A stretch of DNA of 64,000 nucleotides from Bacteroidales bacterium (GTDB taxonomy: Bacteria > Bacteroidota > Bacteroidia > Bacteroidales > WCHB1-69). Each line of letters opens with the position of its first letter. The stretch's first letter is position 1. A program made the translations under genes and the position numbers. Of the stretch, positions 45,916 to 63,864 are shown one piece after another. The notes beneath the pieces are model-generated. The model saw only the letters and a program-made list of their open reading frames with translations, did not search any database and was not told the DNA's origin. Location of the stretch: the NCBI GenBank assembly GCA_016281255.1, contig JAEEIG010000037.1, positions 453 through 64,452 on the forward strand. Reading direction: 5' to 3'.

Positions 45916-45982
45916 AAATAAAGACATTAATCAAAAACAATGGAAAATATGACAAATTATTATGACTTAACATATAACCCCA

Positions 45983-46031
45983 AAAGTCCTAAGTCTTACG
46001 TCTTAAGTCTTACGTCTCAAGTCTTACGTCT
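45983..46031 (-). repeat. heptamer array in inverse orientation (AAAGTCC TAAGTCT TACGTCT TAAGTCT TACGTCT CAAGTCT TACGTCT)
   Basis: Read directly. It is the inverted partner of 45867-45915, 67 bp away. Confidence 0.95.
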
Positions 46032-46047
46032 TATAAACCCCACTCGG

Positions 46048-47973: not shown

Positions 47974-48004
47974 TTAGTGATTTGTGAGTTGTGAGTTGTG
48001 ATTT
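47970..48004 (+). repeat. heptamer array GTGATTA GTGATTT GTGAGTT GTGAGTT GTGATTT
   Basis: Read directly. It contains the TGA stop of the OmpA-family gene. Confidence 0.9.
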
Positions 48005-48034
48005 GAATTGCTGATAATCAGAAGGTTATGAGAT

Positions 48035-48500: not shown

Positions 48501-51500
48501 ATGAAAAAACTATTATCAATTTGCTTTTTAAGCATTCTGCTGGGGCTTCTGAGCTTCAGCACTCAGGCGCAAAGCAATTGCTACGGTTTCTGGATGGAGA
48601 ACCTCCAGCCAGACGTTCTGGATCATGTTGCCAATCCTGGTAACGAGACCGGAACCTACGCGTTGAACCATACGTTGGGTCATGCCGTTTTGCGCGGCCA
48701 ATCCAATCGTTATGTCGGCAACGTGGATTCAAGCGCCATCGGTCAACCCGAGCTTTATGAGTTGCATTTTTGCGACAATGCCTCTGGAAAGAAGCTTTCT
48801 TTCGACTGGCAGTTGGAGCGCAGAAATCCTGCAACCGGCAATTGGCAGATCGTGAACGATAACCTGTCTGCTTATGCGGATTTCGGTATCTACACGCTCT
48901 ACCCGCAACTCAATCAAGCAGGCCAATGCCAGAGCATCAAATGGCTCGGCGGTATTGTCCCGAACGGAATCGGCTACTGCGACAACAGTCAGGTCTATTC
49001 CTTGCTGGACACTATCCTTGGCATTCCTCCTTGCACCACCCCGACCAACTATCCCGGTGCTGTGCAAACCCAAGCTGGTACTCTGCCCGGCAGCGTTCTC
49101 AACACGCTGGGTCAGGCTATCCCTTCCATTGGTATGACTCCCATCTATACTGAAGGTTTCGATTACTTCTATGCAGACTTCCTTGCTTCCACCCGTACCA
49201 TTGTTGTCATCAACTGGAAACAGGTGGGTGATTACAGATTGGTGATGCGCGTGCGCGAGCGCGTTGGCGGTACTGATTGGACCAATGCCACCTGGAACAA
49301 ATACGGCGAAGGCAATGTCATGAACGAAACTGCCTATATCGGCGGTCACATGTCTTGCTGCGGTCCTGTCCTCCTTGTTGATACTTTGCATTATCCTGTT
49401 CTTGACACACTCAACATGGAAGTTTGTCAAGGAACCACCACTGAAATGGGTAGCCCTTACACCTACACTTTCGGTGTTGATCAAAGATGCATCCTCGACA
49501 CGACTGTCTTGGTTGGCGAAATCGTCAATGCAGACTGTCCGAGCGAAAGCCCCTGCCAATATATTGATATTGACACTCTCCGCAATGTGAACTACCTTGT
49601 GCGCATGGCTCCTGTTGCGCAAGTTGAAAAACATACTGACACGCTCTGCAAGTGCGACGCATTCACCACCGACATGGTTCGTGCTATGGTGGAATTCGAT
49701 TCTACTGAAATCGCTACTTTTGTTACCGGAGACGAAACCGTTGAGTATAAACTGCAATGGTTGCACGTGTTCCAAGAAGGTGAACATTTACCTGCAGGTG
49801 ATGGTGCTCTTTGTCCTAATTGTGATTGGTATGAATCCATCTATCCGCGCTCAATTACGGTTAATCCTGCAACCAATGATACTACCTATATGTACATTGT
49901 TCGTCAGGTCAACACCTACAACAATTATGGAGAAGAGGTGGTTTGCGCTGGTCCTGCCGATACCATTTACATCACTTTCCGCGAGATTGTGAAGCCGGTG
50001 GTTCCTGCTGACACTGCTTTCTGTCTTGAAACTATTGAGGCAGGTAGCACTTTGACCATTAACGCCACTCATGATCCTGTATGTGCAAACTCAACCCGTT
50101 GGTATACAAGCAGAAAGTATAATTATTGGACATATAAATATGATTATTCAGGTTATCTGGGTGATGTTGATGCTCTTGTAATTAACCTCAATGATTACAC
50201 CCCTTCTGTCAATAAGGACACCACGGTGCGTTTCTATGCATTCTCTATTGATACGACCAATGGTTGCATGTCCTCTCAGGTTTCTGTTTACACGATTGTT
50301 TTCCACCAGACTCCTGTGCTTGATACAGTAACGGCTCCTAACCTCTACAATTGTCCTGGTGTTGATGTGCCGATGGAAGTTATTGTGGACAACAATCCTT
50401 TGAATACCCCGAGTCCTTATACCTTTGTATGGACTGGTGTAACTGGTGTCGATTTGTTGAATCCGGCTCCTGCTCCGGCTAGCATCGCAACGGTGTCCAC
50501 TATCTCTACGCAAGCTAATTCATCATACGAATTACCATTGAGTAACAACTTTAATTACACTTATAGCCAGCAAATTTTCACGAAAGACGAAGTGGCTTCT
50601 GGTGTGATTAGTACTATTTCTTTCAATTATTCTTCAGCCAATCAGATGACCGCTAAGGACGATGTGAAGATTTATCTTGGTACTACTGATAAAGAATCTT
50701 TTACGGGCTATGGCAACTGGGATCTGACATCTGAGTTGACTTTAGTTTATTCAGGCAATCTCAATTGTAAGCAGGGATGGAATGATTTTACACTTACTAC
50801 TCCTTTTGACTACGATGGACAGAAGAACTTGTTGGTTGTTATTAGCGATGAGTCTGGTGTTTATGATGGTACTTCTTATAAATTTTATACAACTCCTGCA
50901 GGTGCATATAGAACATTGGTTGTGATGCAAGATGGCAGTGTTGCTACGCCTACATCCTATAATGGTGCTAGGAAAAACGTCCGTAGTGATATTAAGTTTA
51001 CGGTTGTTCCTGCCGGTGCTTACACGACCTCTGATGAATTCCAGCAAGCTTACTATCATATTTCCGATACTGATACATGTCATACCGCTTATACTTCTAG
51101 CGTTTATGTCATTGATGCCAACAACTGTAAGTCTACTCCTATCGTCTTTAACTACTTCTTGAACGATACTGTTGCTCCTGTAATCACTCCTGCTACTGTT
51201 TCTTACGGTATCAATGCTTGTGAAATTACGAGCCAGAACGTTCCTGCATACGACAACCTCGCTGAACTGGTTAACGCATTTAATTTGGATATCTACGACA
51301 GCTGTGGTGCTGAGTTTGTCGTTTTGGTTGGCCATAACGATGTTATGACGATCGATTCTTGTCAACAGACCCTCGTGAGAACCTATACCTTTGCTGATCA
51401 TTGCGGAAATCCTGCTACTTTCACTCAGACGGTTGTTTCTCGTGACTCTGTTGCTCCTTACTATACTTTCGATCGTCCGATCCGTCTCGACCCGATTCCT

Positions 51501-54500
51501 GCCGGTGACTGTAAGTTCAATGCTCCCAGCAGACAAGTCATGATTGACGCTATCGCTCCTTATGTGGCTGACAACTGCACCGATTCCGCTTTCTTGATGG
51601 ACAGCATTACCTTCGTTTGGGAGAACACCGACAAGGATCCCGCTTCTGATACCAACATCTTCAGATTGAAGAACCACCTGACCATTACCGCCACTATCAC
51701 TGACAAGTGCGATAACAGCTTCTCCGAAGTGGTCTTCTTCCTCGATCGTCCTGATGATCTCGAAATCGTCGGTCATCCCGTTTCCCATACCGGTGACCTT
51801 TGCGAACAACAGACTGCCACTCTCTTCTTCGATATGAACAGTATCGTTGATGACCAGGAAGTTGGTCCGTTCCCGCCGTACACCCTCACTTGGTATGAGG
51901 TGAATGGTAAGGATGTCACCTTCTCTGATATTCACAATGACACCACAGTGGTGACCTTCAATGAGGGTGCTGGCGACTATACCTTCGCTATGCGTGTGGT
52001 GAACGGCAACGATTGCGAAGCTGTTTCCGCTCCCGCCACCATCAATGTCAGAGAACTCCCGAGCTTGAGCATTATCCCGATCGTCCAACAACCCGGTGTT
52101 GTGGAACCCTACTGCCCGACCTATGGTAATTTGACCATCGAGGCCGTTGTTGCCAATGCCGAGACTTCCGGCGCTACCGGCTACACTTACACTTGGTCTG
52201 GTGAGAGTGTGAATATCTACTCCACCACTGAGACCACTTGGATCACGATTATCCCTGAATGGTGTGATACCACCTACACTGCCACTGTTGTTGTTTCTGA
52301 TGAAAGAGGTTGTACTGCTGAAACGTCCCGTACTTTCGAAGCAGCTGCCCACGATATGATTTTCAATGGCATTATTCCTGATTCTACCGTTGTTATCAAC
52401 CAAGGTTGTGAACTCCATGTTCCTAACTATATGGATCAGATTGCTGCTGAGAACATCACGGACGATTGTTATACCTTCTCCCAGATTACGCAAAAAGCTG
52501 GTTGGTATAAGCAAACTCCTGCTGCCGGTACTGTTTTCTCTACCGATTCAGTCGAGGTTACCATTACCATCACCAATCCTTGCGGCCAGACGGTTTCTAC
52601 CACGACTTATGCACGCAAACCTGCCAACTATCCTTCTGTGAAGATTGTTCCTGACACTATCGCTGTCTGCTACAATGAGTTCTTCGAAGGTGTTACCTAT
52701 AATACCGTAAGCGAAAATCTGGATGACAACACCACTTGGCGTTGGACCATCGGCAACGGCATTGTTGGCACTCAAGATTTCGTCACTCTTCCCAACGACG
52801 CTTTCAACGCTCCTGTGAACCAAGACACGACCTATGTCGTCAATGTCCAAGCTGTGAACAGCCTCGGTTGTCCTGCTACCGCTACCGCTAATCTTGTCAT
52901 CTACTACCAGGGTGATTCTGTCCAACTCCGTGTTTGGAACAACAACCTCTGTGGTGAGGATTATTACAATGGCGTGATTGCTGTTGATTTCGTCCCCACG
53001 AACTATGTGGTTACCCTGTCTCAAGGCAATGTTGACCTGGAGGTTAAGATTTCCGATAACAACCAACATGAACCTACCCTTTGGAATACGGTGATTTTCG
53101 ACTCTTTGGCTCCTGGTTACTATACCGTCACGGTTGAGAACCTGCATGGTTGTACCATGTCTGCCGATACCGTTGTCAGAACGGATGATGTCATCATTTC
53201 TGAACCTACTGTTACGGTTACCGATGTTACCGTTTGTACTGATAATAACGGTGTCATTTCAGTTGTTCGCGAGAACAATTACGGTTTCACCTTGTTCAAT
53301 TCCGATTATTCTGTTGAATACACCGGTATTGTGGCAGGTGCGAACATCAACTTCTCCGGTCTCTCCGCAGCTGAGTACAAGTTGGTAAAGACTCATATTC
53401 CTACCGGATGTGAATTTGCCTGGACTTACAATGTCCTTGATGCTTCTGAACCTGAAACCCAATTCGATATCAACTATACAAACAATACTCGTTGTGACAA
53501 TCCTAACGGTACCATTCACTTCACCGTTACCGGTTCTGATCCTTTGACTTTGCATGTTTGGAATGCAAATTATGACTATACTACTGGCGCCATCACCACT
53601 GATACTACTATCACGGGTCTTGGTTCTACTCAGGGATATATTTTCTATCTTTGCGAAGTTCAGAATACAGTTACTCAATGTAAGAGCGTCGTTTCACGTG
53701 TTCTGATTGAGAATAAAGCTGTTCTTCCTTCCTTTACGGCTACTCCTACTAATAACACCATTTGCCCGAACAACACTGCTTATAACAACAATGTCGAGAA
53801 TTTGGTCAACGGTAAGATTACGATTGCTCCGGCTAATGCGTACACTTATACTGTAATGGATGCGATTACGCTTGACACTGTTAAGACCTCTCTTGATTCT
53901 TTGGCCGAAGGTTCTTATGTCGTTATTGCTGTTAATGAGCAGAATGGTTGTGCTGCTATGAAGGTTGCCAATATTGGCAACACCTATTACCAACCTGTTG
54001 TCGAAACCATTTCTCAAACTCCCAACAGCGTTTGTGACACCACTTACGCTCATCAGTATGATGGTTCTCTGACTATCAAGGTCAAATCCAGCACCAATAC
54101 CATTGCTGATTTCAACAACTACATCCGTCCTTACATGATTGTGCTTGACAACGACACTGTCATTGCTCAATCCAATATCCAGCAAAATACGATTACACAC
54201 CTCGCAGATGGTGTTCACAACTATTACATCCTCACGGATAACAAATGTTATGTCACTGGTTCATACGAAGTGAAAAAGTATGTGATCGACACGATGAGAC
54301 TGGCGACCACTCCTGATCACTTCTGTGCTCCTACTTTCGAGAAACCTGGTGACGGTACTATCGTTGTTCTCTCACCTCGTAATTCTGCTGCACACGGTTA
54401 CAAGTACAAATTCTACGATGCCGACAGCACTGATATGACTGTTCCTTACGAAATGCCTATGACTTACACCAAGTACTGGCTTGCCGATGGTTTATATACC

Positions 54501-57500
54501 GTATTTGCTATCGATACCATTACCGGTTGTACGTTCACTGAGAACATTTATGTCGAGAAGGAACTCTACACCATCACTATCGCTGCTGACGCTACTCCCA
54601 GCACCTATTGCAGCCAAACCTCTGGCGACGGTACGATCACTGTGAATGCTACCAGCACCAATCCTGACGCTGTTTTCAACTACAGCCTTGACAATCAGAA
54701 CTGGCAGGTGAGCAATCTGTTCAGCAATTTGGCTAACAAGACTTATACCGTCTATGTCAAGGATGTCACCACTCGTTGTGTGGACAGCATTTATGTCGGT
54801 ATCAGCTACAGCGATTGCAGACCTGAAATCTCCATCGTTGACCAAAACGGCGACACTGCTCCGTTCGAATATTGTATCAACGACGAGAACGTCAAACTTT
54901 GCGCTAACGCTTTCTATCCTCTTGGCAGCGAATGCGAAGGTACGTTCACCTATCATTGGGATGCTCCTTGTTCAGATCCTCAGTATTCTGACGACAAGTG
55001 TATCGACGTCTTCATTGACCACGTGATGCCGAACGGTTGTAACTACATCCTTACGGTCACCAATCAACTGACGGGTTGTTCTTATGACACGATGGTTTAT
55101 GTCTATGTCAATCCTAAACCTGTCATCGGTTTCGATGTGAATGGTACAACCTATTATAACGCCGAGCAATCTATTCCTTTCTGCGAGCAAGAGAATCTCC
55201 ATATTACTGTTGTCTCTAAGAATGGTCAAACTCTGGTTCCTGAACTTACTTACTGGACTCTCGGTCACATTGGTACTGGTTTGAGCTTCGATACCACTGG
55301 CGCTGGCTACACGCAAGATTACATTACCATCTGCGCTTACTCTACCAGCGACAAGGGTTGTGTTTCCAACATTGCTTCTCTGCCGTTGAACTTCAACCGC
55401 GTGGAAAGAATCACTGTTGACACCACCGTTTGTGGAAGTTTCCAAGTTCCGGACGATATCAGAACTATTACCAGCAATACCTATCCTTACTATGATACTG
55501 TTTCTCATACGTATCCTGGTACACATCCTTACTGCGACCGCATTGTGACTTACAATGTCAAGCTCATCTCTGCTCCTGAGGTTACTCCTTTGAACGAGTA
55601 TGTGGCTGCTTTCTGTGAGGATATGAACTATACGTTGGCTAACTTCGTTGATTCATTCGCCGTTGACACCAATGGTGCTACTACAACTACGAAGTGGCAA
55701 GCTGCTTTGCGTCCTTCCTATAATTACGTTGATGTTGAAGCTACTACTGTTGTTGACTATGCATTTGCTACCACTCACAGAGTTAGATATGTTGCCACCA
55801 ACTGCTGCGGTACTGACTACTCTGATATCTATTTCAATGTTTCCAAGGCTCCTCGTATCGACAGCTTCCAATTGCAATCTAAGTATTGTAGAGCTCAACA
55901 GGCTACCTTAACATTTGATTTCACTGTTTATAATCCTGCTATCGCTGTTTTGACACTTGGTGCTGATACTGTTAGAAGTTATTACATGTATTCTAATGGT
56001 TCTACCAGTCGTACATTCACGTTTACTCCTAACCATGCTAATTATGATGGTAAGACACTCACTTTGAGCATTAGAAATCTAAACAACCTCTGTGATGTTG
56101 TTACTGCAAGCCAAGTGTTCCACGTTGATACTACTTTCATTAATAACTTCACTATTGATACGATTTATTGTGCTGGTAATACTCTCCATCACAGTGATCT
56201 CATCGATGGTACTGGTTATACTAATGTTCGTTTGTGGCATCAAATCGCTGGTCAAACTGATCAAAGAATTTATAATAATTCTACGGTTACTTATGCCATG
56301 AATGGTTATCTCGTATACTTCACCATGAATGATGGTTGTGGTAACCAGATTACGACCAACATTGATACTATCTTTGTGAAACCTCAACCGAGCGTTACTC
56401 TCAATGGTGATGATTATTACAATGTTTGTGAGGATGAATTTGAATTGCCGACTGTTAACATTCCTTCAAATGTTCAATCTCTCGTCTTATCACAAGGTTG
56501 GCAAATGTACAATGGTACTACTCAATCATTTGAAGATACCACTGCTGCCGATATTATAGCTCTTGCTGCTGATAGCATTGTAAGAATTCGTTACTTTGTT
56601 GAGACTGACTGTAATGTCGCTTATACTCAAGCAATCGAGGCTTACTATAAGTTCGCTCCTGAGATTGCCCAACTTCCTACTCTCACTATTTGCCCGGACA
56701 ACACTATTGCTGACGTTCTTCCTACTTCATTGGGTATTACTTGGCATAACATTCTTCTTCCCAACACTAATAACTTCCGTACTACTCGTTATTATTTAGT
56801 GAAGGGAACGAATACTGTTGAGGTTTATCCTACTTCTGTCTTTAGCAACTATTATTCATACAATGATGGTAAATTACGCATTGTAGTTACCAACGAGTGT
56901 GGTTCTGCTTCAACCGAAGCTACTATCCACATCCCGGTTTACAGCCACAACGAAATCGTTGCTGTTGACACATGTAAAGGTCTCACCATTGCAGCCTTCG
57001 CAGCTACTCCTCAATGGACCGGTGATCAAGGTGTTGTCACCTCTGAGACTTGGGTGCGTCTTGTCAATAATGAATATGTTGCTACCACCGATGAGTATGT
57101 CGTGAACACCAATACCACTATTTCTTATCGTTGGATTACTGTTTGCGAAGACACTCTCTACGCTGCTCCTGTCACGATTCATCCTCTGCTGACTCCCGAA
57201 GTTACTATCTTGGCTGACAACCTTGTCAACGATACTATCGCCATCTGTGAGGGTAACACGATCAATCCTACTGCTTTTGTCAGCTATCCTATCTATTCTT
57301 CCACCGTTACTGACACTACTTGGTTCTTCAACGGTAATGCTTACGATCCTTCTTATCAGTTCACCGCAGCTGACAATGACAAGGAACTTGTTGTCAAGCT
57401 TTCTACCACTTGCGATGATTCCTACGATACTGTCATTGTGAGAGTTTATCCTACTCCGGATCCTACCATCGACGGTCCTCTGACTGCTTGTAGTGGAGAA

Positions 57501-58709
57501 GAAATTACCATTACTGCACAGGCTGGCTTCAGCAGCTATGTCTTCACCGTAAATGGTCAAGCTTCTCAACCTCAATCCAGCAATGTCTTCGAGACCACTG
57601 TCTTCGACAACAATCCTGATGGTGTTGATATCACTACTGTTACTGTCACTGTCACCGACAATCATTCTTGTACCGGTACTTCTTCTGACAAGGTTGAAGT
57701 CTCTGTCACCGACCAAGCTGCATTTGTCTTCTTCAATGAAAACGGTACCGAGAACGAAACCCACAATTACACCGTCAACGATGGTGGTGGTTTGAACTAC
57801 GGTTGGATGATCAGCACGGAGTGCGCTGATTATGACACGTTGGTCTATGTTGAGTATGACATTTACTATGAAGGTCAGCTCATCTCCAACGATGCTATCG
57901 GTGAATACTTCCACACTGGCAACTACACTGACCAATGGGGTCATCAAACGCCTTTCATCAGCAGCAATACATTCAGCTGGCTGAGCGGTAATGGTACTCC
58001 TTTGACCAATACTACTTACTACAACTTCGCTGTTGCTAATCCTAATGTCGCCACCAATGGCAACCACTTCCCGAACACCAACCTTGGTCTCGGCAACACT
58101 AACGTTTACGATGACCTCTGGTTGCGCTTCATCGGTGACCGTGGTGTGAATGCCACTTTGGTTCCGTTCAGATTGGATGGTGAATACAAGATTGTTTACA
58201 GACTCTACTCCACCTCTCATGCTGATGACTTCGAGCATTACTACACCGAAGATAATCCTGCTCACGATAATTTCGGTACGCAGTCTCACCTCGGTGGTCA
58301 GAACGCTCTCGTCAATGTTGCTATTCGCAAGCTCTTAGCTATCGACTCTATCACCATCAACGTCGAGAACGCTGTTGCTGGTCCTTCTGAGACCACTGCT
58401 CCTGTCCTTGCTCCTGCTATCAGCTCTGAGGAGAATGTGATTGTTCCTGAAATGGAAGTTTGGCCGAACCCGGCTCCTTCTATCGTCACCACCTTCAAGG
58501 CTCGCGTTTACAACATGAGCGGTGAGGCTACTGTGACCATCACGAACTTCACTGGTAAACAAGTCTATAGTGGCAATATCAATATTGATAGCGATAACTT
58601 CTACTTCGAGGCCGACGTTAACAGCCTTGCCGTGGGTGCTTACATCATGACTGTTCGCACCGATGACGCTGTTGTCACCAAGAAACTGGTTGTGACCGTT
58701 AGACAATAA
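48501..58709 (+). CDS. giant (3402 aa) Cys-rich cell-surface repeat protein, SprB/HYR-like modules, T9SS C-terminal sorting domain
   Basis: Uninterrupted 10,209-nt ORF with signal peptide MKKLLSICFLSILLGLLSFSTQAQ. Repeated C...(N/D)G(T/S/V/K)I modules: CTDNNGVISVV, CDNPNGTIHFTV, GDGTIVVLSP, GDGTITVNATS. HYR-like D.V.P...C...CGN modules. CTD: VWPNPAPSIVTTF...GAYIMTVRTDDAVVTKKLVV. Confidence 0.85.
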   Translation: MKKLLSICFLSILLGLLSFSTQAQSNCYGFWMENLQPDVLDHVANPGNETGTYALNHTLGHAVLRGQSNRYVGNVDSSAIGQPELYELHFCDNASGKKLSFDWQLERRNPATGNWQIVNDNLSAYADFGIYTLYPQLNQAGQCQSIKWLGGIVPNGIGYCDNSQVYSLLDTILGIPPCTTPTNYPGAVQTQAGTLPGSVLNTLGQAIPSIGMTPIYTEGFDYFYADFLASTRTIVVINWKQVGDYRLVMRVRERVGGTDWTNATWNKYGEGNVMNETAYIGGHMSCCGPVLLVDTLHYPVLDTLNMEVCQGTTTEMGSPYTYTFGVDQRCILDTTVLVGEIVNADCPSESPCQYIDIDTLRNVNYLVRMAPVAQVEKHTDTLCKCDAFTTDMVRAMVEFDSTEIATFVTGDETVEYKLQWLHVFQEGEHLPAGDGALCPNCDWYESIYPRSITVNPATNDTTYMYIVRQVNTYNNYGEEVVCAGPADTIYITFREIVKPVVPADTAFCLETIEAGSTLTINATHDPVCANSTRWYTSRKYNYWTYKYDYSGYLGDVDALVINLNDYTPSVNKDTTVRFYAFSIDTTNGCMSSQVSVYTIVFHQTPVLDTVTAPNLYNCPGVDVPMEVIVDNNPLNTPSPYTFVWTGVTGVDLLNPAPAPASIATVSTISTQANSSYELPLSNNFNYTYSQQIFTKDEVASGVISTISFNYSSANQMTAKDDVKIYLGTTDKESFTGYGNWDLTSELTLVYSGNLNCKQGWNDFTLTTPFDYDGQKNLLVVISDESGVYDGTSYKFYTTPAGAYRTLVVMQDGSVATPTSYNGARKNVRSDIKFTVVPAGAYTTSDEFQQAYYHISDTDTCHTAYTSSVYVIDANNCKSTPIVFNYFLNDTVAPVITPATVSYGINACEITSQNVPAYDNLAELVNAFNLDIYDSCGAEFVVLVGHNDVMTIDSCQQTLVRTYTFADHCGNPATFTQTVVSRDSVAPYYTFDRPIRLDPIPAGDCKFNAPSRQVMIDAIAPYVADNCTDSAFLMDSITFVWENTDKDPASDTNIFRLKNHLTITATITDKCDNSFSEVVFFLDRPDDLEIVGHPVSHTGDLCEQQTATLFFDMNSIVDDQEVGPFPPYTLTWYEVNGKDVTFSDIHNDTTVVTFNEGAGDYTFAMRVVNGNDCEAVSAPATINVRELPSLSIIPIVQQPGVVEPYCPTYGNLTIEAVVANAETSGATGYTYTWSGESVNIYSTTETTWITIIPEWCDTTYTATVVVSDERGCTAETSRTFEAAAHDMIFNGIIPDSTVVINQGCELHVPNYMDQIAAENITDDCYTFSQITQKAGWYKQTPAAGTVFSTDSVEVTITITNPCGQTVSTTTYARKPANYPSVKIVPDTIAVCYNEFFEGVTYNTVSENLDDNTTWRWTIGNGIVGTQDFVTLPNDAFNAPVNQDTTYVVNVQAVNSLGCPATATANLVIYYQGDSVQLRVWNNNLCGEDYYNGVIAVDFVPTNYVVTLSQGNVDLEVKISDNNQHEPTLWNTVIFDSLAPGYYTVTVENLHGCTMSADTVVRTDDVIISEPTVTVTDVTVCTDNNGVISVVRENNYGFTLFNSDYSVEYTGIVAGANINFSGLSAAEYKLVKTHIPTGCEFAWTYNVLDASEPETQFDINYTNNTRCDNPNGTIHFTVTGSDPLTLHVWNANYDYTTGAITTDTTITGLGSTQGYIFYLCEVQNTVTQCKSVVSRVLIENKAVLPSFTATPTNNTICPNNTAYNNNVENLVNGKITIAPANAYTYTVMDAITLDTVKTSLDSLAEGSYVVIAVNEQNGCAAMKVANIGNTYYQPVVETISQTPNSVCDTTYAHQYDGSLTIKVKSSTNTIADFNNYIRPYMIVLDNDTVIAQSNIQQNTITHLADGVHNYYILTDNKCYVTGSYEVKKYVIDTMRLATTPDHFCAPTFEKPGDGTIVVLSPRNSAAHGYKYKFYDADSTDMTVPYEMPMTYTKYWLADGLYTVFAIDTITGCTFTENIYVEKELYTITIAADATPSTYCSQTSGDGTITVNATSTNPDAVFNYSLDNQNWQVSNLFSNLANKTYTVYVKDVTTRCVDSIYVGISYSDCRPEISIVDQNGDTAPFEYCINDENVKLCANAFYPLGSECEGTFTYHWDAPCSDPQYSDDKCIDVFIDHVMPNGCNYILTVTNQLTGCSYDTMVYVYVNPKPVIGFDVNGTTYYNAEQSIPFCEQENLHITVVSKNGQTLVPELTYWTLGHIGTGLSFDTTGAGYTQDYITICAYSTSDKGCVSNIASLPLNFNRVERITVDTTVCGSFQVPDDIRTITSNTYPYYDTVSHTYPGTHPYCDRIVTYNVKLISAPEVTPLNEYVAAFCEDMNYTLANFVDSFAVDTNGATTTTKWQAALRPSYNYVDVEATTVVDYAFATTHRVRYVATNCCGTDYSDIYFNVSKAPRIDSFQLQSKYCRAQQATLTFDFTVYNPAIAVLTLGADTVRSYYMYSNGSTSRTFTFTPNHANYDGKTLTLSIRNLNNLCDVVTASQVFHVDTTFINNFTIDTIYCAGNTLHHSDLIDGTGYTNVRLWHQIAGQTDQRIYNNSTVTYAMNGYLVYFTMNDGCGNQITTNIDTIFVKPQPSVTLNGDDYYNVCEDEFELPTVNIPSNVQSLVLSQGWQMYNGTTQSFEDTTAADIIALAADSIVRIRYFVETDCNVAYTQAIEAYYKFAPEIAQLPTLTICPDNTIADVLPTSLGITWHNILLPNTNNFRTTRYYLVKGTNTVEVYPTSVFSNYYSYNDGKLRIVVTNECGSASTEATIHIPVYSHNEIVAVDTCKGLTIAAFAATPQWTGDQGVVTSETWVRLVNNEYVATTDEYVVNTNTTISYRWITVCEDTLYAAPVTIHPLLTPEVTILADNLVNDTIAICEGNTINPTAFVSYPIYSSTVTDTTWFFNGNAYDPSYQFTAADNDKELVVKLSTTCDDSYDTVIVRVYPTPDPTIDGPLTACSGEEITITAQAGFSSYVFTVNGQASQPQSSNVFETTVFDNNPDGVDITTVTVTVTDNHSCTGTSSDKVEVSVTDQAAFVFFNENGTENETHNYTVNDGGGLNYGWMISTECADYDTLVYVEYDIYYEGQLISNDAIGEYFHTGNYTDQWGHQTPFISSNTFSWLSGNGTPLTNTTYYNFAVANPNVATNGNHFPNTNLGLGNTNVYDDLWLRFIGDRGVNATLVPFRLDGEYKIVYRLYSTSHADDFEHYYTEDNPAHDNFGTQSHLGGQNALVNVAIRKLLAIDSITINVENAVAGPSETTAPVLAPAISSEENVIVPEMEVWPNPAPSIVTTFKARVYNMSGEATVTITNFTGKQVYSGNINIDSDNFYFEADVNSLAVGAYIMTVRTDDAVVTKKLVVTVRQ

Positions 58710-58732
58710 TCAATAGTTATTCATACATGGAA

Positions 58733-58767
58733 GGAGTTGTGCGCACTGGCGTGCAACTCCTTTTTTT
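58733..58767 (+). terminator. rho-independent terminator of the giant gene
   Basis: GGAGTTGTGCGC-actg-GCGTGCAACTCC (two G-U pairs) followed by T7. Confidence 0.85.
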
Positions 58768-58953
58768 GATTTGAGATTTGAGATTTGAGATTTAAGACTT
58801 AAGACTTAAGACTTATGACTTATGACTTAAGATTTAAGACTAAAATCTAAAATCTAAAATCTAAAGTCTAAGGTCTAAAGTCCCAAGTCTAAAGTCTAAA
58901 GTCTAAAATCTAAAGTCCCAATTCTAAAGTCTCTAAAGTCTAAAGTCCCAAGT
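58768..58953. repeat. 186-bp head-to-head inverted heptamer array (10 forward GAYTTRA units, then 16 reverse CTAAAGT-type units)
   Basis: Read directly: (GATTTGA)3 GATTTAA (GACTTAA)2 (GACTTAT)2 GACTTAA GATTTAA, then (CTAAAAT)3 CTAAAGT CTAAGGT CTAAAGT CCCAAGT (CTAAAGT)2 CTAAAAT CTAAAGT CCCAATT CTAAAGT ct (CTAAAGT)2 CCCAAGT. Confidence 0.95.
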
Positions 58954-58971
58954 CCATAAACAAAAATTCTA

Positions 58972-60741
58972 ATGACCAACTACAAACGATATATCCCTTG
59001 GTTGTTCGCGGTGTTCTTGTTGAATGCGGTGTATGTTGTATTGACGATATTCGCGTTTTTGATGATCGAGCCGTTCGCGAAGTTGCTGTTTCGCGGCCAT
59101 TTGGAGGGATTGAGTCCATTGTCATCCTATTTTGTGTCGATTCTTGGCGGATACCTTCCGATGGACAGTCAGGGTGTTTCGTTTGTGACTTTGGTTTCCG
59201 CGGCCGTTTTTCTCTTCCTGTTGCGCAATCTTTCGGCGTATGCTTCTCAGTGGTTGATGGCCCATGTGCGTAGTGATTTTCTCTTTACGCTCCGCAATCG
59301 TCTCTACGACAAGATGATTTCATTGCCGTTGGGTTATTTCAACAAAGAGAGTCGCGGCGATGCGGTCACCCGTGCGGTGAACGACACCCAGGAGGTGGAA
59401 TACACGGTTCTCAACTCCATCTATCAGTTCCTTACCGACCCTCTCACCTTGTTTTGCTATCTCGGTTTCCTTTTTTACATCGACTACCAGCTTTCCTTGT
59501 GGGCGGTTTTGTTAATGCCGTTGTCCTTCCTGATCATCGGTTTCTTGGCGCACCGGCTCAAGCGTTCTTCGAAAACCTACCGTCAGCGACTTGGTGTCCT
59601 GTTGTCGCATGTGGAAGAGACTATTTCGGGGTTGCGGGTGATTTACGGTTTTAACGCCCAGGAGCGTGCCTATCGGCGTTTCAACGAGCGGAATCTGCAG
59701 TTCACGCAGAACCAGAAGCGGGTCTATCGACAGAGCTATTTGGCCAACCCGCTGAGTGAGTTCCTCGGGGTAAGTGCTGTTATGGTGGTGTTGGTGATCG
59801 GGGGCTCGTTGGTGCTTTCGGAGCGTTCTTCCTTGTCGGCGGAGCTTTTCATCACCTACATTGCCCTTTTCTCGCAGGTCATCACGCCCATTTCGCGCAT
59901 TTCCTCGGCCTTTTCGGACTACAAGCGCGGGGAGGCGGCGCTGGACCGTATCCGCGATTTTTTGGCGATTCCCGACAATGTGGAGGATAGCGGCGCGGTG
60001 TTGACTCTTCCCGGTTTTCACGAGGCTTTGACGTTCCGGGATGTCTCTTTCGCCTACACGGATGCCGAGGTGTTGAGCCATATCGATCTGACCATTCCGA
60101 AGGGGAAGACGGTGGCGTTTGTGGGGCAGTCGGGTGCTGGAAAATCCACCCTTGCCGATTTGCTGATGCGGTTCTATGACCCTACCGGCGGCGAGATATT
60201 GTTGGACGGGGTGCCCATCCGGCATTACGGGGTGGGGGATTACCGTTCTTTGTTCGCTTTGGTGTCGCAGGATGTGATGCTTTTTCACGACACTATCTAC
60301 CACAATATCACGATGGGGATGGAGGCCACGCCGGAGCAGGTCGCTGAAGCGGCGAAAACGGCCAATATTTACGACTTTGTGATGTCGCTGCCTGACGGGT
60401 TCGGCCATGTCGTCGGCGACCGCGGAACGACGCTTTCCGGCGGCCAGCGGCAACGGGTGAGCATTGCGAGGGCGGTGTTGCGGAAGGCGCCTGTGCTGGT
60501 GCTGGACGAAGCCACCTCGGCGATGGACACGGAGAGCGAGCGGCTGGTGCAGCAGTCGATAGAAGCGTTGTCGAAGCAGTGCACGGTGGTGATGATCGCC
60601 CACAGGCTCTCCACGGTGCAGCGTGCCGACCTGATCTGTGTGCTGGATGCCGGCCGGCTGGTGGAATCCGGCACGCACGAAGAGCTGATGGCGGCGAAAG
60701 GGACTTATTACAAGTTAGTAGTTAGTAGTTGTGATTTGTGA
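58972..60741 (+). CDS. ABC transporter permease/ATP-binding protein (MsbA-like exporter)
   Basis: 589 aa. A six-TM N-terminal half, Walker A GQSGAGKST, signature LSGGQRQR and Walker B LVLDEATSAMD. The last 9 codons (KLVVSSCDL) and the stop are encoded by the repeat array. Confidence 0.9.
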   Translation: MTNYKRYIPWLFAVFLLNAVYVVLTIFAFLMIEPFAKLLFRGHLEGLSPLSSYFVSILGGYLPMDSQGVSFVTLVSAAVFLFLLRNLSAYASQWLMAHVRSDFLFTLRNRLYDKMISLPLGYFNKESRGDAVTRAVNDTQEVEYTVLNSIYQFLTDPLTLFCYLGFLFYIDYQLSLWAVLLMPLSFLIIGFLAHRLKRSSKTYRQRLGVLLSHVEETISGLRVIYGFNAQERAYRRFNERNLQFTQNQKRVYRQSYLANPLSEFLGVSAVMVVLVIGGSLVLSERSSLSAELFITYIALFSQVITPISRISSAFSDYKRGEAALDRIRDFLAIPDNVEDSGAVLTLPGFHEALTFRDVSFAYTDAEVLSHIDLTIPKGKTVAFVGQSGAGKSTLADLLMRFYDPTGGEILLDGVPIRHYGVGDYRSLFALVSQDVMLFHDTIYHNITMGMEATPEQVAEAAKTANIYDFVMSLPDGFGHVVGDRGTTLSGGQRQRVSIARAVLRKAPVLVLDEATSAMDTESERLVQQSIEALSKQCTVVMIAHRLSTVQRADLICVLDAGRLVESGTHEELMAAKGTYYKLVVSSCDL

Positions 60742-60830
60742 TTTGTGATTTGTGATTTGTGATTTGTGATTTGTGATTTGTGATTTGAGATTTGAGATTT
60801 GAGATTTGAGATTTGTGATTTGTGACTTGT
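60714..60830 (+). repeat. heptamer array: degenerate GTTAGTA units, then (GATTTGT)7 (GATTTGA)4 (GATTTGT)2 GACTTGT
   Basis: Read directly; 14 clean units from 60733 to 60830. It spans the ABC gene stop and lies upstream of four-helix cassette 1. Confidence 0.95.
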
Positions 60831-60871
60831 GTTTTTTTAAGTGATGTTTGTTTTTGTATTATAATATTTTT

Positions 60872-60879
60872 TATTTTTG
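60872..60879 (+). promoter_or_regulatory. putative -7 box for four-helix-bundle gene 1
   Basis: TATTTTTG lies 33 nt upstream of the ATG at 60913. The 21-nt leader AAATTATTGTTTAACAAAATA (60883-60903) is identical in cassette 2. Confidence 0.5.
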
Positions 60880-60912
60880 CGGAAATTATTGTTTAACAAA
60901 ATAAATATCCTT

Positions 60913-61341
60913 ATGAAAACTTATTCTTTTGAAAATCTTGATGTTTGGAAATATTCCAGACAATTAGTCAAACAAGTTTACAACATTCAATCTGCATTTC
61001 CATCTTTTGAAAGGTATGGCTTGGGAGACCAAATAAGACGTGCCGTTGTTTCTCTTTCGTCGAATATTGCAGAAGGAAATGCAAGAAGTTCAATCAAGGA
61101 CCAGGTTCATTTCTTAGAAATATCTAAAGGGTCTCTAATGGAAGTCTATTGTCAAATGTTATTAGCCTATGATTTGAATTATATTAATGCAAATCAGCTG
61201 TCAAAGTGCAAAGAGAACATTGATGTCATTTTTAAACTGCTCAATGGCCTCATTTATCAAAAAATCAATCTTATATCTAACAATGCTGTCCAAACCCCAT
61301 ATCGAAACAAATACTGTCAGCCCCATAATCATAAATCATAA
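60913..61341 (+). CDS. four-helix-bundle protein (23S rRNA intervening-sequence protein / Avd-like family)
   Basis: The start at 60913 gives MKTYSFENLDVWKYSRQLV...FGLGDQIRRAVVSLSSNIAEGNAR...GSLMEV, the family pattern. The C-terminal HNHKS and the stop lie inside the downstream array. Confidence 0.85.
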   Translation: MKTYSFENLDVWKYSRQLVKQVYNIQSAFPSFERYGLGDQIRRAVVSLSSNIAEGNARSSIKDQVHFLEISKGSLMEVYCQMLLAYDLNYINANQLSKCKENIDVIFKLLNGLIYQKINLISNNAVQTPYRNKYCQPHNHKS

Positions 61342-61379
61342 GTCATAAATCATAAGTCATAAATCCTAAGTCTAAAATC
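61324..61379 (-). repeat. heptamer array, inverse orientation (CATAATC ATAAATC ATAAGTC ATAAATC ATAAGTC ATAAATC CTAAGTC TAAAATC)
   Basis: Read directly; 8 units between four-helix gene 1 and trmB. Confidence 0.95.
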
Positions 61380-61387
61380 AAACATCA

Positions 61388-62053
61388 ATGTCAAAACATA
61401 AATTAGCGAGATTCGCGGAGAACGCGACGTTTGAGAATTTGTTCCAGCATACGGAATACGACAGGGCGGGAAAGGAGTTCCCGTTGCGGGGCCGTTGGAA
61501 GGAGGATTATTTCCACAACGACCGTCCCATTGTGCTGGAGTTGGGCTGCGGCAAAGGGGAGTACACCATTGCGATGGCGAAGCGGTTCCCCGGGCGCAAC
61601 TACATCGGCATCGACCGGAAGGGGGCGCGGTTGTGGCGCGGCTGCAAGGACGCCATCGAGCAGGAGCTGGCGAATGTGGCGTTCCTGCGCATCACCATCG
61701 ACCACATAGAGCACTATTTCGCCCCCGGCGAGGTGGACGAGATTTGGGTGACCTTCCCGGACCCGCAGATCAAGAAGGAGCGCAAGCGCTTGGTGGGCCC
61801 GCATTTCGTGAACGACTACTATCGCCGGATTTGGCCCGCAAACGGCGGTATTTTGCATTTGAAGTCCGATAGCGACTTCTTGTACGATTATCTCCTCGAA
61901 ACGGCGAAAGAACAGCGCTGGGAGCTTCTGCAGGACATTCCCGACGTGTATGCCGGAGACGTTGATCCGTTGCTCACGGAGGTGCAGACGTTTTACGAGA
62001 AGATGTGGTTGGCGGAGGGGAAGACGATACACTATGTGAGACTTAAGACTTAA
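61388..62053 (+). CDS. trmB: tRNA (guanine46-N7)-methyltransferase
   Basis: 221 aa with SAM motif LELGCGKGEYT and FPDPQIKK. The last codons (VRLKT) and the stop are encoded by the repeat array. Confidence 0.9.
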   Translation: MSKHKLARFAENATFENLFQHTEYDRAGKEFPLRGRWKEDYFHNDRPIVLELGCGKGEYTIAMAKRFPGRNYIGIDRKGARLWRGCKDAIEQELANVAFLRITIDHIEHYFAPGEVDEIWVTFPDPQIKKERKRLVGPHFVNDYYRRIWPANGGILHLKSDSDFLYDYLLETAKEQRWELLQDIPDVYAGDVDPLLTEVQTFYEKMWLAEGKTIHYVRLKT

Positions 62054-62088
62054 GACTTGAGACTTGAGACTTGAAACTTAAGACTGTA
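62040..62088 (+). repeat. heptamer array (GACTTAA)2 (GACTTGA)3 AACTTAA GACTGTA
   Basis: Read directly. It contains the stop codons of both convergent genes: trmB (62051-62053) and four-helix gene 2 (62078-62080). Confidence 0.95.
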
Positions 62089-62458
62089 TGGTGGAAAGTT
62101 GTTTGGACTTTTGGTATCGCATCCCTTTTAGCAACTTATGTACTTCTTCTATTTTCTCTTTGCAAAGTTTTAGTTGCTTTTCGGTAATGTAGTTTAAATC
62201 ATAAGCTAATGTCAACTGGCAATAGACTTCCATCAACGATCCAAGGGCAATCTCAATGAAATGAATTTGTTCTTTTATGGAATACCGGGCGTTCCCTTCA
62301 ACAAAATTTGACGACACGGAAACAACAGCTCTCCTCAACTGATCTCCCAAACCATATTTTTCAAATGAAGGAAATGTGGATTGGATACGGTAAACAAGCA
62401 AAACAAGTTCTCTGGATTTTTTCCAAACTTCAAGATTTTCAAACGAATAAGTGTTCAT
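62078..62458 (-). CDS. four-helix-bundle protein (23S rRNA IVS protein / Avd-like family), paralog 2
   Basis: The ATG at 62458 gives MNTYSFENLEVWKKSRELV...YGLGDQLRRAVVSVSSNFVEGNAR. By hand alignment, 83 of the first 117 residues are identical to paralog 1. Confidence 0.85.
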   Translation of the reverse strand: MNTYSFENLEVWKKSRELVLLVYRIQSTFPSFEKYGLGDQLRRAVVSVSSNFVEGNARYSIKEQIHFIEIALGSLMEVYCQLTLAYDLNYITEKQLKLCKEKIEEVHKLLKGMRYQKSKQLSTIQS

Positions 62459-62491
62459 ACTATAAAATATTTTGTTAAACAATAATTTTTG

Positions 62492-62499
62492 CAAATATA
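62492..62499 (-). promoter_or_regulatory. putative -7 box for four-helix-bundle gene 2
   Basis: TATATTTG on the minus strand, 33 nt upstream of the ATG at 62458, the same spacing as cassette 1. The conserved leader is at 62468-62488. Confidence 0.5.
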
Positions 62500-62534
62500 A
62501 TCTTTTTATAATATAAAAAGGGCTTTCTTCAAAA

Positions 62535-62580
62535 AAAGTCTTAAGTCTCAAGTCTTAAGTCTAAAAATAATCTCAAGTCT
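62535..62580 (-). repeat. heptamer array, inverse orientation (AAAGTCT TAAGTCT CAAGTCT TAAGTCT ... CAAGTCT)
   Basis: Read directly. It lies upstream of four-helix cassette 2 and reads AGACTTR on the cassette strand. Confidence 0.9.
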
Positions 62581-62592
62581 CAATTATTTTTG

Positions 62593-62600
62593 TACTTTTG
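62593..62600 (+). promoter_or_regulatory. putative -7 box for gcvT
   Basis: TACTTTTG lies 38 nt upstream of the ATG at 62639. Confidence 0.5.
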
Positions 62601-62638
62601 CGCTCTCAAAAAGTTATTACAATTAAATCCAAAACAAT

Positions 62639-63733
62639 ATGAAAGAAACCGTTTACAGAGCGAAACATGAGGCCTTAGGCGCCAAAATGGAAGAGTTTGC
62701 CGGCTTTTACATGCCGATTCAGTACGACAGCATCACCAACGAGCACCTGCAGGTGCGTAACAAAGTGGGCGTGTTCGACGTGTCCCACATGGGTGAGTTC
62801 ACCGTGAAGGGTCCGAAGGCGTTGGCATTGCTGCAACACATCACCACCAACGATGTGGCTGCCTTGTTCCCGGGCAAAGTGCAATACAGCTGCTTCCCGA
62901 ACGGCAAGGGCGGTATCGTCGATGACCTTTTGGTTTACAATCTCCATGACGAGGATTACCTGCTGGTGGTGAACGCCGCCAACATCGACAAAGACTGGGC
63001 ATGGGTGGTGGAGCAGAACAAGGCTTTCGGTGCCGAGATCGAGAACATCTCCGACAGCATCTCCCAATTGGCAGTGCAGGGTCCTTTGGCACTCAAGGCT
63101 ATGCAGAAACTGACCAGCGCGAACGTGGTGGACATGGAGTACTACACCAACCAGATCATCACTTTCGCCGGCATCGACAATATCCTCTTCTCCACGACCG
63201 GTTACACTGGCAGCGGCGGATGTGAGATTTATTTCCCGAATGAGGTGGCCATGAAGATTTGGGATGCCGTGTTCGAGGCTGGTGCTGAGTTCGACATCAA
63301 ACCCATCGGTTTGGGTGCTCGCGACACCTTGCGTTTGGAGATGGGCTTCTGCCTGTATGGTCACGAGATTGACGACACGATCTCTCCGATCGAGGCCGGT
63401 TTGGGCTGGATCACGAAGTTCGTGGACGGCAAGGATTTCATCGACCGCAAGTACATGGAAGACCTGAAAGCCAACGGCGTGACCCGCAGAATCGCCGGTT
63501 TCGAGCTGATTGACCGCGGAATTCCGAGAAACGGCTACGAAGTGTGCGATGCCGAGGGTAACGTCATCGGCGAAGTGCGTTCCGGCACATTCGGTCCGTC
63601 CGTGAACAAGGGCATCGGCACGGCGCTGATCAAGAAAGAGTTCGCGAAATCCGGTACGGAAATTTTCATCAAAGTGCGTAACCGCCTGCTGAAGGCCGTT
63701 ACGGTGAAGATGCCGTTCTACAAACCCGAATAA
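62639..63733 (+). CDS. gcvT: glycine cleavage system aminomethyltransferase T
   Basis: 364 aa with [12 protein letters not shown] and [13 protein letters not shown]. Confidence 0.95.
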
Positions 63734-63764
63734 TTCAATGGCGTATGCTGTTGTTTGATAATAA

Positions 63765-63797
63765 ACGTCCGGGTTTTTCGCCTGGACGTTTTTTTTG
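63765..63797 (+). terminator. rho-independent terminator after gcvT
   Basis: ACGTCCGGG-tttttcg-CCTGGACGT followed by a T8 run. Confidence 0.8.
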
Positions 63798-63799
63798 GG

Positions 63800-63839
63800 C
63801 TTAGAGGCTTAGAGGTTTAGAGGTTAATAAGTTTAGAGG
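63800..63839. repeat. 8-bp period array (CTTAGAGG x2, TTTAGAGG, TTAATAAG, TTTAGAGG)
   Basis: Read directly, immediately after the gcvT terminator. Confidence 0.85.
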
Positions 63840-63864
63840 GGTAAATGGGTAAACGAAAAAAATG

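Follow-up and report, generated by a model that had tools for sequence, protein, structure and literature searches.

A head-to-head heptamer array in a rumen Bacteroidales genome as a candidate unloaded member of a hairpin-element family resembling 23S rRNA intervening sequences

The gap between the gene of a giant adhesin and that of an ATP-binding cassette (ABC) exporter in a 64,000-nucleotide stretch of contig JAEEIG010000037.1 (Bacteroidales bacterium, assembly GCA_016281255.1; the whole stretch is called the window below) holds a head-to-head array of heptamers at positions 58768–58954. The question raised by this locus is whether such an array is inert simple-sequence DNA, a control structure of the adjoining genes, or an element in its own right. 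The comparisons described below moderately favor the last answer, in which the array represents the unloaded state of hairpin elements that form a dispersed family and correspond, between genes, to the intervening sequences (IVSs) of 23S rRNA genes.

The array and the loaded cassettes beside it

Direct reading of the gap gives ten forward heptamers of the form GAYTTRA, a turning unit and sixteen reverse heptamers of the form TAAARTC or CCAAGTC. The forward units (58768–58837) are, in order, GATTTGA three times, GATTTAA, GACTTAA twice, GACTTAT twice, GACTTAA and GATTTAA. The turning unit GACTAAA begins at 58838, and the reverse units (58841–58954) run TAAAATC three times, TAAAGTC, TAAGGTC, TAAAGTC, CCAAGTC, TAAAGTC twice, TAAAATC, TAAAGTC, CCAATTC and TAAAGTC, followed, after a 2-nt insertion (TC, 58932–58933), by TAAAGTC twice and CCAAGTC. 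This reading, together with Tandem Repeats Finder (TRF; 58768–58841, score 92; 58836–58947, 15.7 copies, score 129), bears out the composition given in the first-pass annotation, which placed ten forward and sixteen reverse units directly after the T-run of the adhesin terminator and noted a difference of one base in seven between GACTTTA, the right arm in reverse complement, and GACTTAA of the left arm. The same annotation called the array the largest in the window; it is the longest composite, but the single-orientation array at 60729–60835 has a higher TRF score (172). A period-7 detector of our own, applied to the window and to 100 dinucleotide shuffles, found 12 arrays in the window (longest 157 nt) and a mean of 0.03 in the shuffles (longest 30 nt). 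No open reading frame (ORF) lies between the two arms at 58838–58846, either in the ORF list or by direct reading, and Rfam gives no rRNA match in 58000–63000, where the flanking genes are protein-coding.

Folded alone as RNA, the array reaches −56.8 kcal/mol on the plus strand and −60.1 kcal/mol on the minus strand, with 59 pairs, four of them G-U, and the predicted stem consists of 6-bp helices parted by single mismatches. Together with the terminator it folds to −81.3 kcal/mol (z = −9.1), and as DNA it folds to −29.1 kcal/mol (z = −5.6). The region thus carries a long inverted-repeat stem, interrupted but 59 bp long (z = −7.5 to −9.1). It also has the features of heptanucleotide long simple sequence repeats (LSSRs) and of short tandemly repeated repetitive (STRR) sequences, namely tandem 7-nt units above chance level, a non-coding position and a copy number polymorphic by whole units. 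Of the hairpin or cruciform foreseen by the first-pass annotation, the long imperfect hairpin is retained by the RNA folds of both strands and by the DNA fold, while a mismatch in every 7 bp makes the extrusion of a cruciform from the duplex unlikely, judging from general cruciform energetics.

Several known structures were considered and rejected for the array. The array is not an intrinsic terminator, as its stem is AT-rich and is followed by CATAAACAAAAATTCTA; the GC-rich stem with a T-run is a separate hairpin at 58729–58767. It is not a clustered regularly interspaced short palindromic repeat (CRISPR) locus, whose repeats of 23–50 nt alternate with unique spacers, since its units are 7 nt long and contiguous, without spacers. 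Rfam matches to plant microRNA precursors are sub-threshold and reflect only a long AU-rich hairpin.

Arrays of the period-7/8 kind are present in several intergenic gaps of the window, and two inverted pairs bracket AT-rich cassettes amid housekeeping genes, 2–3 kb downstream of the adhesin/ABC array. The order in cassette 1 is ABC gene, (TTGTGAT)15, hb1, (ATCATAA)n, trmB, and in cassette 2 it is trmB, (GACTTAA)7, hb2 on the minus strand, (AAGTCTT)4, gcvT. Read in gene orientation, both consist of a G-type arm, a promoter, the gene and a C-type arm, with the gene stop in the first arm unit. The two cassettes are paralogous and align over the T-run, the −7 box (TAnnTTTG), the gene and the arms. 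Their genes, the sole four-helix-bundle genes of this family in the window, belong to TIGR02436 (110–113 bits, cutoff 24) and PF05635, the '23S rRNA intervening sequence protein' family, and are homologous to the Xanthomonas protein of PDB 2GSC. Such an ORF lies in the loop of 60729–61380 and of 62034–62566 and not in that of the adhesin/ABC array. The left arm of the array aligns in direct orientation with the G-arms of both cassettes (Smith–Waterman score 30–33.5) and the right arm with both C-arms (15–22). The comparison with the array-bracketed cassettes proposed in the first-pass annotation thus agrees with its description of two abutting arrays without cargo, or an empty site: the same arms bracket both cassettes.

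Two other cassette systems invite comparison. Like the cassettes of integrons, those of the window are small single-gene units bounded by imperfect inverted hairpin repeats, as attC sites are, and occur at loaded and empty sites. Integron cassettes, however, are promoterless and stacked at one attI, and the integrase acts on a single 3′ attC, whereas those of the window stand at scattered sites, each between two arms, with no integrase nearby. The second system is that of the diversity-generating retroelements (DGRs), whose Avd protein shares the pentameric four-helix-bundle fold family with the products of hb1 and hb2. The latter match the Avd model NF033474 weakly (29–37 bits, under the cutoff of 80) as well as the bAvd-like PF22296, and no reverse transcriptase, template repeat or variable repeat lies beside the window cassettes. 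As the equivalog cutoff is missed, the two are not DGR Avd proteins. A PADLOC search for defence systems matched neither.

Empty and loaded states of the same sites in relatives

Related loci, numbered here with an L, were found by a homology search with the ABC protein of the window; an exact-sequence look-up gave no match. The adhesin/ABC site differs among them in length, unit and architecture. The nearest strains (L001–L004, L052, L053, L055; 99% identical ABC protein, at least eight samples) carry a shorter, degenerate head-to-head stretch, and L038 and L039 (83%) a long head-to-head array of the unit of the window. In L037, L040, L005, L041 and L043 there is only a forward (AGTTAGN)n array running into the ATG, and L041 and L043 are exactly two units apart. 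The first-pass annotation had held that identical length in all strains, together with read-through transcription and no effect of the array on reporter expression, would argue for inert DNA; as to length, by sequence comparison the junction is instead highly polymorphic.

Both states are seen at the trmB/gcvT site, where the window has the loaded cassette 2 and L038 has (GACTTGA)14/(TAAAGTC)7 without cargo. Like cassette 2, the empty array of L038 occupies the interval between the trmB stop codon and the gcvT promoter. The two are therefore alternative states of one site, which supports the interpretation of the adhesin/ABC array as an empty site. At the same position L037 and L005 have an empty inverted octamer pair and L040 a different repeat element. 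The ABC/trmB site, loaded with cassette 1 in the window, is without a cassette in L005, L037 and L038. The arms also change within one state, as the cassette 2 arm at 62034–62085 has 3, 5 or 6 units among strains with identical hb2.

Compared per 100 bp, the window and L001 are 99–100% identical for more than 1 kb on either side of the gap and 32–66% identical across 58701–58999. A drop of this kind amid such flanks marks a hypervariable island and not a slippage variant alone. Besides the arrays, the divergent patch (58745–58999) includes the loop of the terminator and, in the ABC gene, the first ~25 coding nucleotides (ATGACCAACTACAAA vs ATGAACAATTATAAA), while the terminator stem and all the rest are 99–100% identical. 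The alignment suggests the replacement of a patch of ~250 bp rather than slippage in place.

Among the alleles of the adhesin/ABC site, only those of the window (z = −7.5) and L038 (z = −7.1) fold significantly. The common allele of the L001 type has z = −0.2, four other relatives lie between +0.4 and −1.4, and L037 has −2.4. Since the nearest strains and most relatives have no foldable structure, the array is dispensable at this site, and it is recent or fast-evolving. A needed role as a barrier or regulator between the adhesin and ABC genes finds no support.

These data bear directly on the possibility that the array is a phase-variable control region in the 5′ untranslated region, whose repeat number or hairpin strength would switch or tune the ABC exporter or couple it to the adhesin gene. 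The position between terminator and ATG with no room for a promoter and the length polymorphism between strains are what such a region would have, and tandem repeats upstream of start codons tune expression elsewhere (Moraxella UspA2, as the review in PMC4679880 presents it). The alleles, however, differ in unit sequence and architecture and not in number alone; the same structures stand between convergent, divergent and housekeeping genes of all kinds, both in L011 and in the window; and the right arm ends 17 nt before the ATG, with the A-rich leader unpaired in the predicted fold. Control by phase variation is therefore improbable.

Two further observations concern the compared contigs. In the ABC/trmB and trmB/gcvT gaps of L040 (3408–3880 and 4567–4790; ABC protein 85% identical) and at 11868–11975 of L038, the filler is of a different kind: a unit of ~65 nt with a sub-threshold match to the Rfam Acido-Lenti-1 RNA (32.4 bits, gathering threshold 37, minus strand), then 12 or ~4 tandem GC-rich hairpin repeats of 28–29 nt, all bracketed by heptamer arrays. 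The short-read contigs L001–L004, L039, L052, L053 and L055 nearly all stop inside (TTGTGAT)n or inside the adhesin/ABC array.

Association with one gene family and likeness to rRNA intervening sequences

One genome per species was scanned with an alignment of hb1 and hb2, which yielded 29 loci from rumen Bacteroidales, Prevotella, Bacteroidaceae, Saprospiraceae and others. Most of the four-helix-bundle genes are flanked by inverted tandem arrays with a period of 7, 8, 9, 10/11 or longer. The unit varies from locus to locus, and the two arms of one locus match each other: cognate arms pair with −0.95 kcal/mol per nt and non-cognate ones with −0.35 (p = 4e-10). The association was measured by aligning each flank locally with the reverse-complemented opposite flank, with a threshold score of 14 or more, after the RNAduplex energy of 165-nt flanks had proved useless, as all genes scored strongly. 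Inverted-complementary flanks were found for 25 of 30 four-helix-bundle genes and 9 of 224 other genes (Fisher p = 2e-22), the nine lying mostly between two adjacent structures. The genes are under purifying selection (dN/dS 0.03–0.10). The arrays themselves avoid coding sequence, with 131 of 145 period-7/8 arrays in 410 kb being intergenic although ~88% of this DNA is coding, by simple longest-ORF gene calls. Head-to-head pairs of the form (CGRTTTA)n/(TAAAYCG)n stand in almost all gaps of L011, irrespective of a convergent, divergent or tandem orientation of the genes on either side. Among 2.9 million viral contigs scanned, (GACTTRA)3 occurred in a single stretch; the arrays are not a phage feature.

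The architecture has variants. In L036 (4450–5260, a metagenome-assembled genome (MAG) of Saprospirales) a complete head-to-head 9-mer hairpin stands on each side of the four-helix-bundle gene (G-C, gene, G-C), and in L011 the layout is G, gene, G-C. The arms of L022 (4790–5560), L029 (4790–5610) and L014 (4800–5450) are built of units of ~16 to 24 nt, some with internal hairpins, and are still inverted and complementary. In L017 (5001–5352) the gene has an in-frame stop and a frameshift while the (GACTTAA)n/(AAGTCTT)n arms are intact; this decaying cassette is possibly an intermediate towards an empty hairpin.

The arrays have a fixed polarity, with the G-rich arm first when read 5′ to 3′ on either strand. 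Adjacent pairs are G-then-C in 11 cases and C-then-G in none, and for pairs 121–620 bp apart the count is 13 to 3, the three being the end of one structure and the start of the next. Such polarity is not expected if the hairpin were selected for pairing only. Stop codons within the repeat units were considered as its general explanation and rejected, as (CGATTTA)n of L011, when read inward, contains none. An RNA-specific signature, sense-strand G-U pairing, was likewise abandoned: it seemed present in cassette 1 (−62 vs −29 kcal/mol), but over 20 cassettes the strands divided 9 to 11 (Wilcoxon p = 0.96).

Complementarity and polarity weigh against the plainest alternative, that of two slippage-born heptamer microsatellites abutting by chance, without relation to cassettes and without function. 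Heptamers are the commonest class of long simple sequence repeats in many prokaryotes and are ascribed to slippage, according to the summary of Mrazek 2007 given in PMC4679880, the copy number changes in steps of 7, and the structure is dispensable at the adhesin/ABC site. Independent arrays would nevertheless not be complementary to the degree measured for cognate arms, nor would they always be ordered G-then-C. Moreover, one unit family occurs at unlinked sites of a genome while orthologous sites in relatives carry others, and the association with one gene family extends across phyla. A chance origin is for these reasons unlikely, though a little less so than the other alternatives considered here.

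The array does share much with the intergenic heptamer repeats described before. Direct repeats of TAACTGA, whose indels come in steps of 7 nt, are known from Beggiatoaceae, Cyanobacteria and five Bacteroidetes and may have a part in translation or rearrangement (MacGregor 2015, PMC4679880); the Beggiatoa genome has one inverted case among 170 repeat sets (PMC4679880). Like the cyanobacterial STRR, the LSSR and the TAACTGA repeats, the window arrays are tandem 7-nt units, almost exclusively intergenic, often flush with stop or start codons and subject to 7-nt indels; relatives even carry (CAGTTAN)n, a near reverse complement of TAACTGA, at the adhesin/ABC site. They differ in that those repeats were reported as direct repeats, without the head-to-head layout, the G-then-C polarity or the link to a four-helix-bundle gene.

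Polarity with respect to genes is also relevant to a host auxiliary RNA element, which would act in the manner of the repetitive extragenic palindromic (REP) sequences and bacterial interspersed mosaic elements (BIMEs) as a back-up or bidirectional terminator, a transcriptional insulator or a 3′-end stabilizer. In its favor, arrays lie directly downstream of gene ends, with host stop codons abutting G-type arms in 39 cases and C-type arms in ~7 (four-helix-bundle genes set aside), to which the strong predicted hairpin and the REP-like intergenic, genome-specific distribution can be added. At the locus in question, a canonical terminator already lies upstream, so that transcripts ending there would exclude the array, no T-run follows the array hairpin, and the hairpin is missing in the nearest strains; in L011 one gap holds both a head-to-head array and a separate canonical bidirectional terminator. 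A host role of this type has little probability.

Likewise of low probability is a non-autonomous mobile element, comparable to miniature inverted-repeat transposable elements (MITEs) or to hairpins formed by REP doublets (REPINs), moved in trans by a transposase encoded elsewhere, with the four-helix-bundle gene as an occasional passenger. REP, BIME and REPIN elements are, like the arrays, intergenic inverted hairpin doublets, genome-specific, present in many copies and often located just after stop codons (PMC3116915). The genome-specific unit family at many unlinked sites would suit such an element, and so would the empty forms, which are about as common as loaded ones in a sample gathered through the four-helix-bundle gene. 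REPs, however, are imperfect palindromes of 20–40 nt with defined ends, moved by REP-associated tyrosine transposases (RAYTs), whereas the window arms are open-ended arrays of non-palindromic 7-mers; for this reason the adhesin/ABC array was rejected as a REPIN or BIME. Inverted arms are present as in MITEs, but neither fixed termini nor a target-site duplication is visible, and the arms, variable in length among strains, have their starts precisely at stop codons or T-runs. Unlike what passenger capture would give, the cargo nearly always belongs to one family. No transposase was present among the scanned neighbor genes of the 64-kb window, to which this search was confined.

The family of hairpin elements with one kind of cargo extends to Cyanobacteria. 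In a tblastn search of plasmids, the four-helix-bundle family was found almost only in this phylum. Among 14 plasmid copies examined (13 cyanobacterial), 10 have inverted flanks, again with the G-rich arm first, 2 have direct arrays and 2 none. Examples of inverted flanks are (GTAGGGA)n ... (TCCCTAC)n in Nostoc edaphicum and (GGGTGTA)n ... (CTACACC)n in Calothrix. On the cyanobacterial plasmids (L044–L051, L068–L071) the genes are wedged inside operons: between cas6 and cas4 in Anabaena sp. 90 and Pseudanabaena, between cmr2 and cmr3 in Picosynechococcus, and, in Nostoc edaphicum, between the genes for the beta and alpha subunits of ribonucleotide reductase. The G-type arm (e.g., CAGGAGT) of several such cassettes provides GGAG-like Shine–Dalgarno motifs right before the ATG.

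One of the ten inverted copies, that of Azospirillum lipoferum, lies inside a 23S rRNA gene (Rfam large subunit rRNA model, 2135 bits). Its ORF is flanked by CAGAGGA/CGGAGGA and CCGTCCT/CTGTCTT units, which form the IVS stem in the predicted fold. The IVS of Coxiella is built similarly, with 3–4 tandem heptamers GACAGAT of strain-variable number before the start codon of S23p and a stem of inverted repeats, and it is excised by RNase III (PMC4990558). The IVSs of Leptospira, Coxiella, Xanthomonas, Brucella and Azospirillum hold an ORF of the same protein family as the window cassettes in the loop of an inverted-repeat stem, with the G-rich arm first and with arms of tandem heptamers in Azospirillum and Coxiella. 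Short IVSs without an ORF also exist and parallel the empty array. The window cassettes are thus built like the classical IVS and agree with it in protein family, in their place within a hairpin loop, in heptamer arms and in polarity. The differences are that IVSs are located in helix 25/45 of 23S rRNA and the window elements between protein-coding genes, that the loaded window cassettes have their own Bacteroidota-type promoter and much longer, more homogeneous arms, that the adhesin/ABC array has no ORF, and that RNase III excision is demonstrated for IVSs and only predicted for the window elements. The literature found, an incomplete coverage of the field, does not link PF05635/TIGR02436 genes to flanking inverted tandem arrays outside rRNA. 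The array therefore belongs to known kinds, the heptamer simple sequence repeat and the IVS, and what is new is a variant joining features of both.

Setting of the array, proposed element and its meaning

The features of the window are collected in Table 1. The host belongs to the Bacteroidales of the rumen and is uncultured; metagenomes and MAGs from rumen and ruminant gut supplied the nearest ABC homologues as well as the related loci, and gldB and markers of the type IX secretion system (T9SS) are present in the window. Changes between relatives in the terminator of the surface protein gene are confined to its loop. A consensus scan found no sigma-70-like site before the ABC ATG, the sigma-70 consensus being one that does not cover Bacteroidota promoters; since a promoter would not fit into this interval, transcripts would reach the array only by reading through the adhesin terminator. 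The layout of T-run and G-type array at 58761–58768 recurs at the gcvT terminator (63762–63840) with the octamer GGCTTAGA, which also builds the empty inverted pairs that L037 and L005 have between trmB and gcvT. The spacer of the pair at 45866–46033 has, by inspection only, no obvious cassette remnant. The last codons and stops of the ABC, trmB, mazG and OmpA/PD40 genes lie inside the first array units (60713–60741, 62030–62053, 45866–45880 and 47969–47975), so that a changed array can give a host protein other C-terminal residues, and the C-terminus of the ABC protein (…KLVVSSCDL) is array-encoded.

Table 1. Positions of the array, the cassettes, the neighboring genes and the remaining arrays in the window
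Feature	Position	Strand	Evidence or remark
Left (G-type) arm, 10 heptamers GAYTTRA and turning unit	58768–58840		Direct reading, TRF
Right (C-type) arm, 16 heptamers TAAARTC/CCAAGTC, 2-nt insertion 58932–58933	58841–58954		59 bp with left arm (minimum free energy fold)
Gene of 3402-aa secreted surface protein (adhesin), T9SS C-terminal sorting domain	48501–58709	+	ORF list; Pfam Por_Secre_tail, HYR_4C
Intrinsic terminator of surface protein gene, GC-rich stem 58733–58760, T7 58761–58767	58729–58767	+	Conserved in all relatives
A-rich 17-nt leader before ABC start codon	58955–58971	+	No room for promoter
ABC exporter gene (MsbA-like), ATG at 58972	58972–60741	+	Last codons and stop inside next array
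Cassette 1 G-type arm (TTGTGAT/TTGAGAT) x15, TRF score 172	60729–60835		TRF
Cassette 1 leader, T7 run and Bacteroidota-type −7 box TATTTTTG at 60872–60879	60836–60912	+	Conserved in cassette 2
Cassette 1 cargo hb1, four-helix-bundle protein (TIGR02436/PF05635)	60913–61341	+	
Cassette 1 C-type arm (ATCATAA/GTCATAA)n, complementary to left arm, holds hb1 stop codon	61325–61380		TRF
Cassette 2 arm (GACTTAA/GACTTGA)n, with the stops of trmB (+) and hb2 (−) inside	62034–62085		TRF
Cassette 2 cargo hb2, four-helix-bundle protein, 68% identical to hb1	62078–62458	−	
Cassette 2 arm (AAGTCTT/AAGTCTC)n, on the gene side A7 run and cassette promoter	62534–62566		TRF
Second nearly empty inverted pair (GACTTGG)n, ~70-bp spacer, (AAGTCTT/ACGTCTT)n, mazG/OmpA-PD40 gap	45866–46033		TRF
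(GACTTGA/GACTTAA)n then (CTTCCCT)n, ssb/gldB gap; G-then-C polarity, arms not complementary	36956–37103		TRF
Single G-type array (GTGATTT/GTGAGTT)n, begins at stop codon of OmpA/PD40 gene	47969–48007		TRF
Octamer array (GGCTTAGA)n directly after gcvT terminator T-run	63793–63840		TRF

The proposed element would be a G-rich arm followed by a C-rich arm in inverted orientation, each an array of short tandem units (usually 7 nt), and in the loaded form it would carry one small TIGR02436/PF05635 four-helix-bundle (S23p, Avd-like) gene at its apex. Replication slippage, of which the 7-nt steps are seen, would lengthen and shorten the arms, and their complementarity would be maintained by template switching inside the quasi-palindrome together with conversion from further arrays built of that unit. 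Arms common to several loci may offer 50–100 bp of homology per side, through which cassettes could be gained or lost by recombination; given this shared homology, the adhesin/ABC site would be either a landing pad or a vacated site. Read-through RNA is predicted to fold into an interrupted duplex of ~59 bp, which, by analogy with the IVSs, is probably cut by RNase III. The element is probably neutral or selfish rather than a host regulator.

Several points weigh against the interpretation of the array as an unloaded element. In none of the relatives examined is there a loaded allele at the adhesin/ABC site, and recent movement of cassettes is not seen, as all 15 contigs encoding exactly hb2, and the sole contig encoding exactly hb1, represent the same locus. 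Some members of the family have direct and not inverted arrays (L051, L066). The stem is interrupted every 6 bp, and the complementarity of the arms could be purely mechanistic, arising through quasi-palindrome correction. The pairing of arms has no sense/antisense asymmetry (9 vs 11), and the adhesin/ABC array folds equally on both strands; therefore nothing points specifically to a role at the RNA level, and RNA is not claimed over DNA. Finally, collection of the loci through the four-helix-bundle gene biases both the ratio of empty to loaded forms and the density of arrays, and many loaded cassettes may share ancestry, so that counts are not independent events.

A wider and distinctly tentative reading, held with much less confidence than the unloaded-element account, would treat inverted short-period arrays with a TIGR02436 gene as one widespread, undescribed class of hairpin-loop cassettes, with the IVS as a special case. 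The heptamer arrays of Bacteroidota and Cyanobacteria would then largely be arms or empty remnants. The Avd-like protein would help to make, keep or move the arrays, e.g., by templated or slippage-prone 3′-end repeat synthesis on both sides of a break, and the polarity and the 7-nt period would reflect that mechanism and not selection for folding.

The meaning of these observations lies in the connection of three puzzles. Catalogues of intergenic heptamer repeats, namely the cyanobacterial STRR and those of Bacteroidetes and giant sulfur bacteria, go back decades, and to our knowledge neither an origin nor a function has been established for them. We likewise know of no role for the S23p/TIGR02436 proteins, those with solved structures included, and of no resolved origin for the 23S rRNA IVSs. 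The data tie the three together, because one gene family is found in repeat-built hairpin loops in rRNA genes, in operons of cyanobacterial plasmids and in housekeeping gaps of rumen Bacteroidales, and empty hairpins such as 58768–58954 occupy sites equivalent to loaded ones. The arrays systematically break short-read metagenome assemblies, which hides the cassettes, and form hypervariable islands between otherwise identical strains. The unloaded-element account predicts that intergenic hairpins would be processed by RNase III, that cassettes would be gained and lost through shared arms, and that the four-helix-bundle protein would have a role related to nucleic acids.

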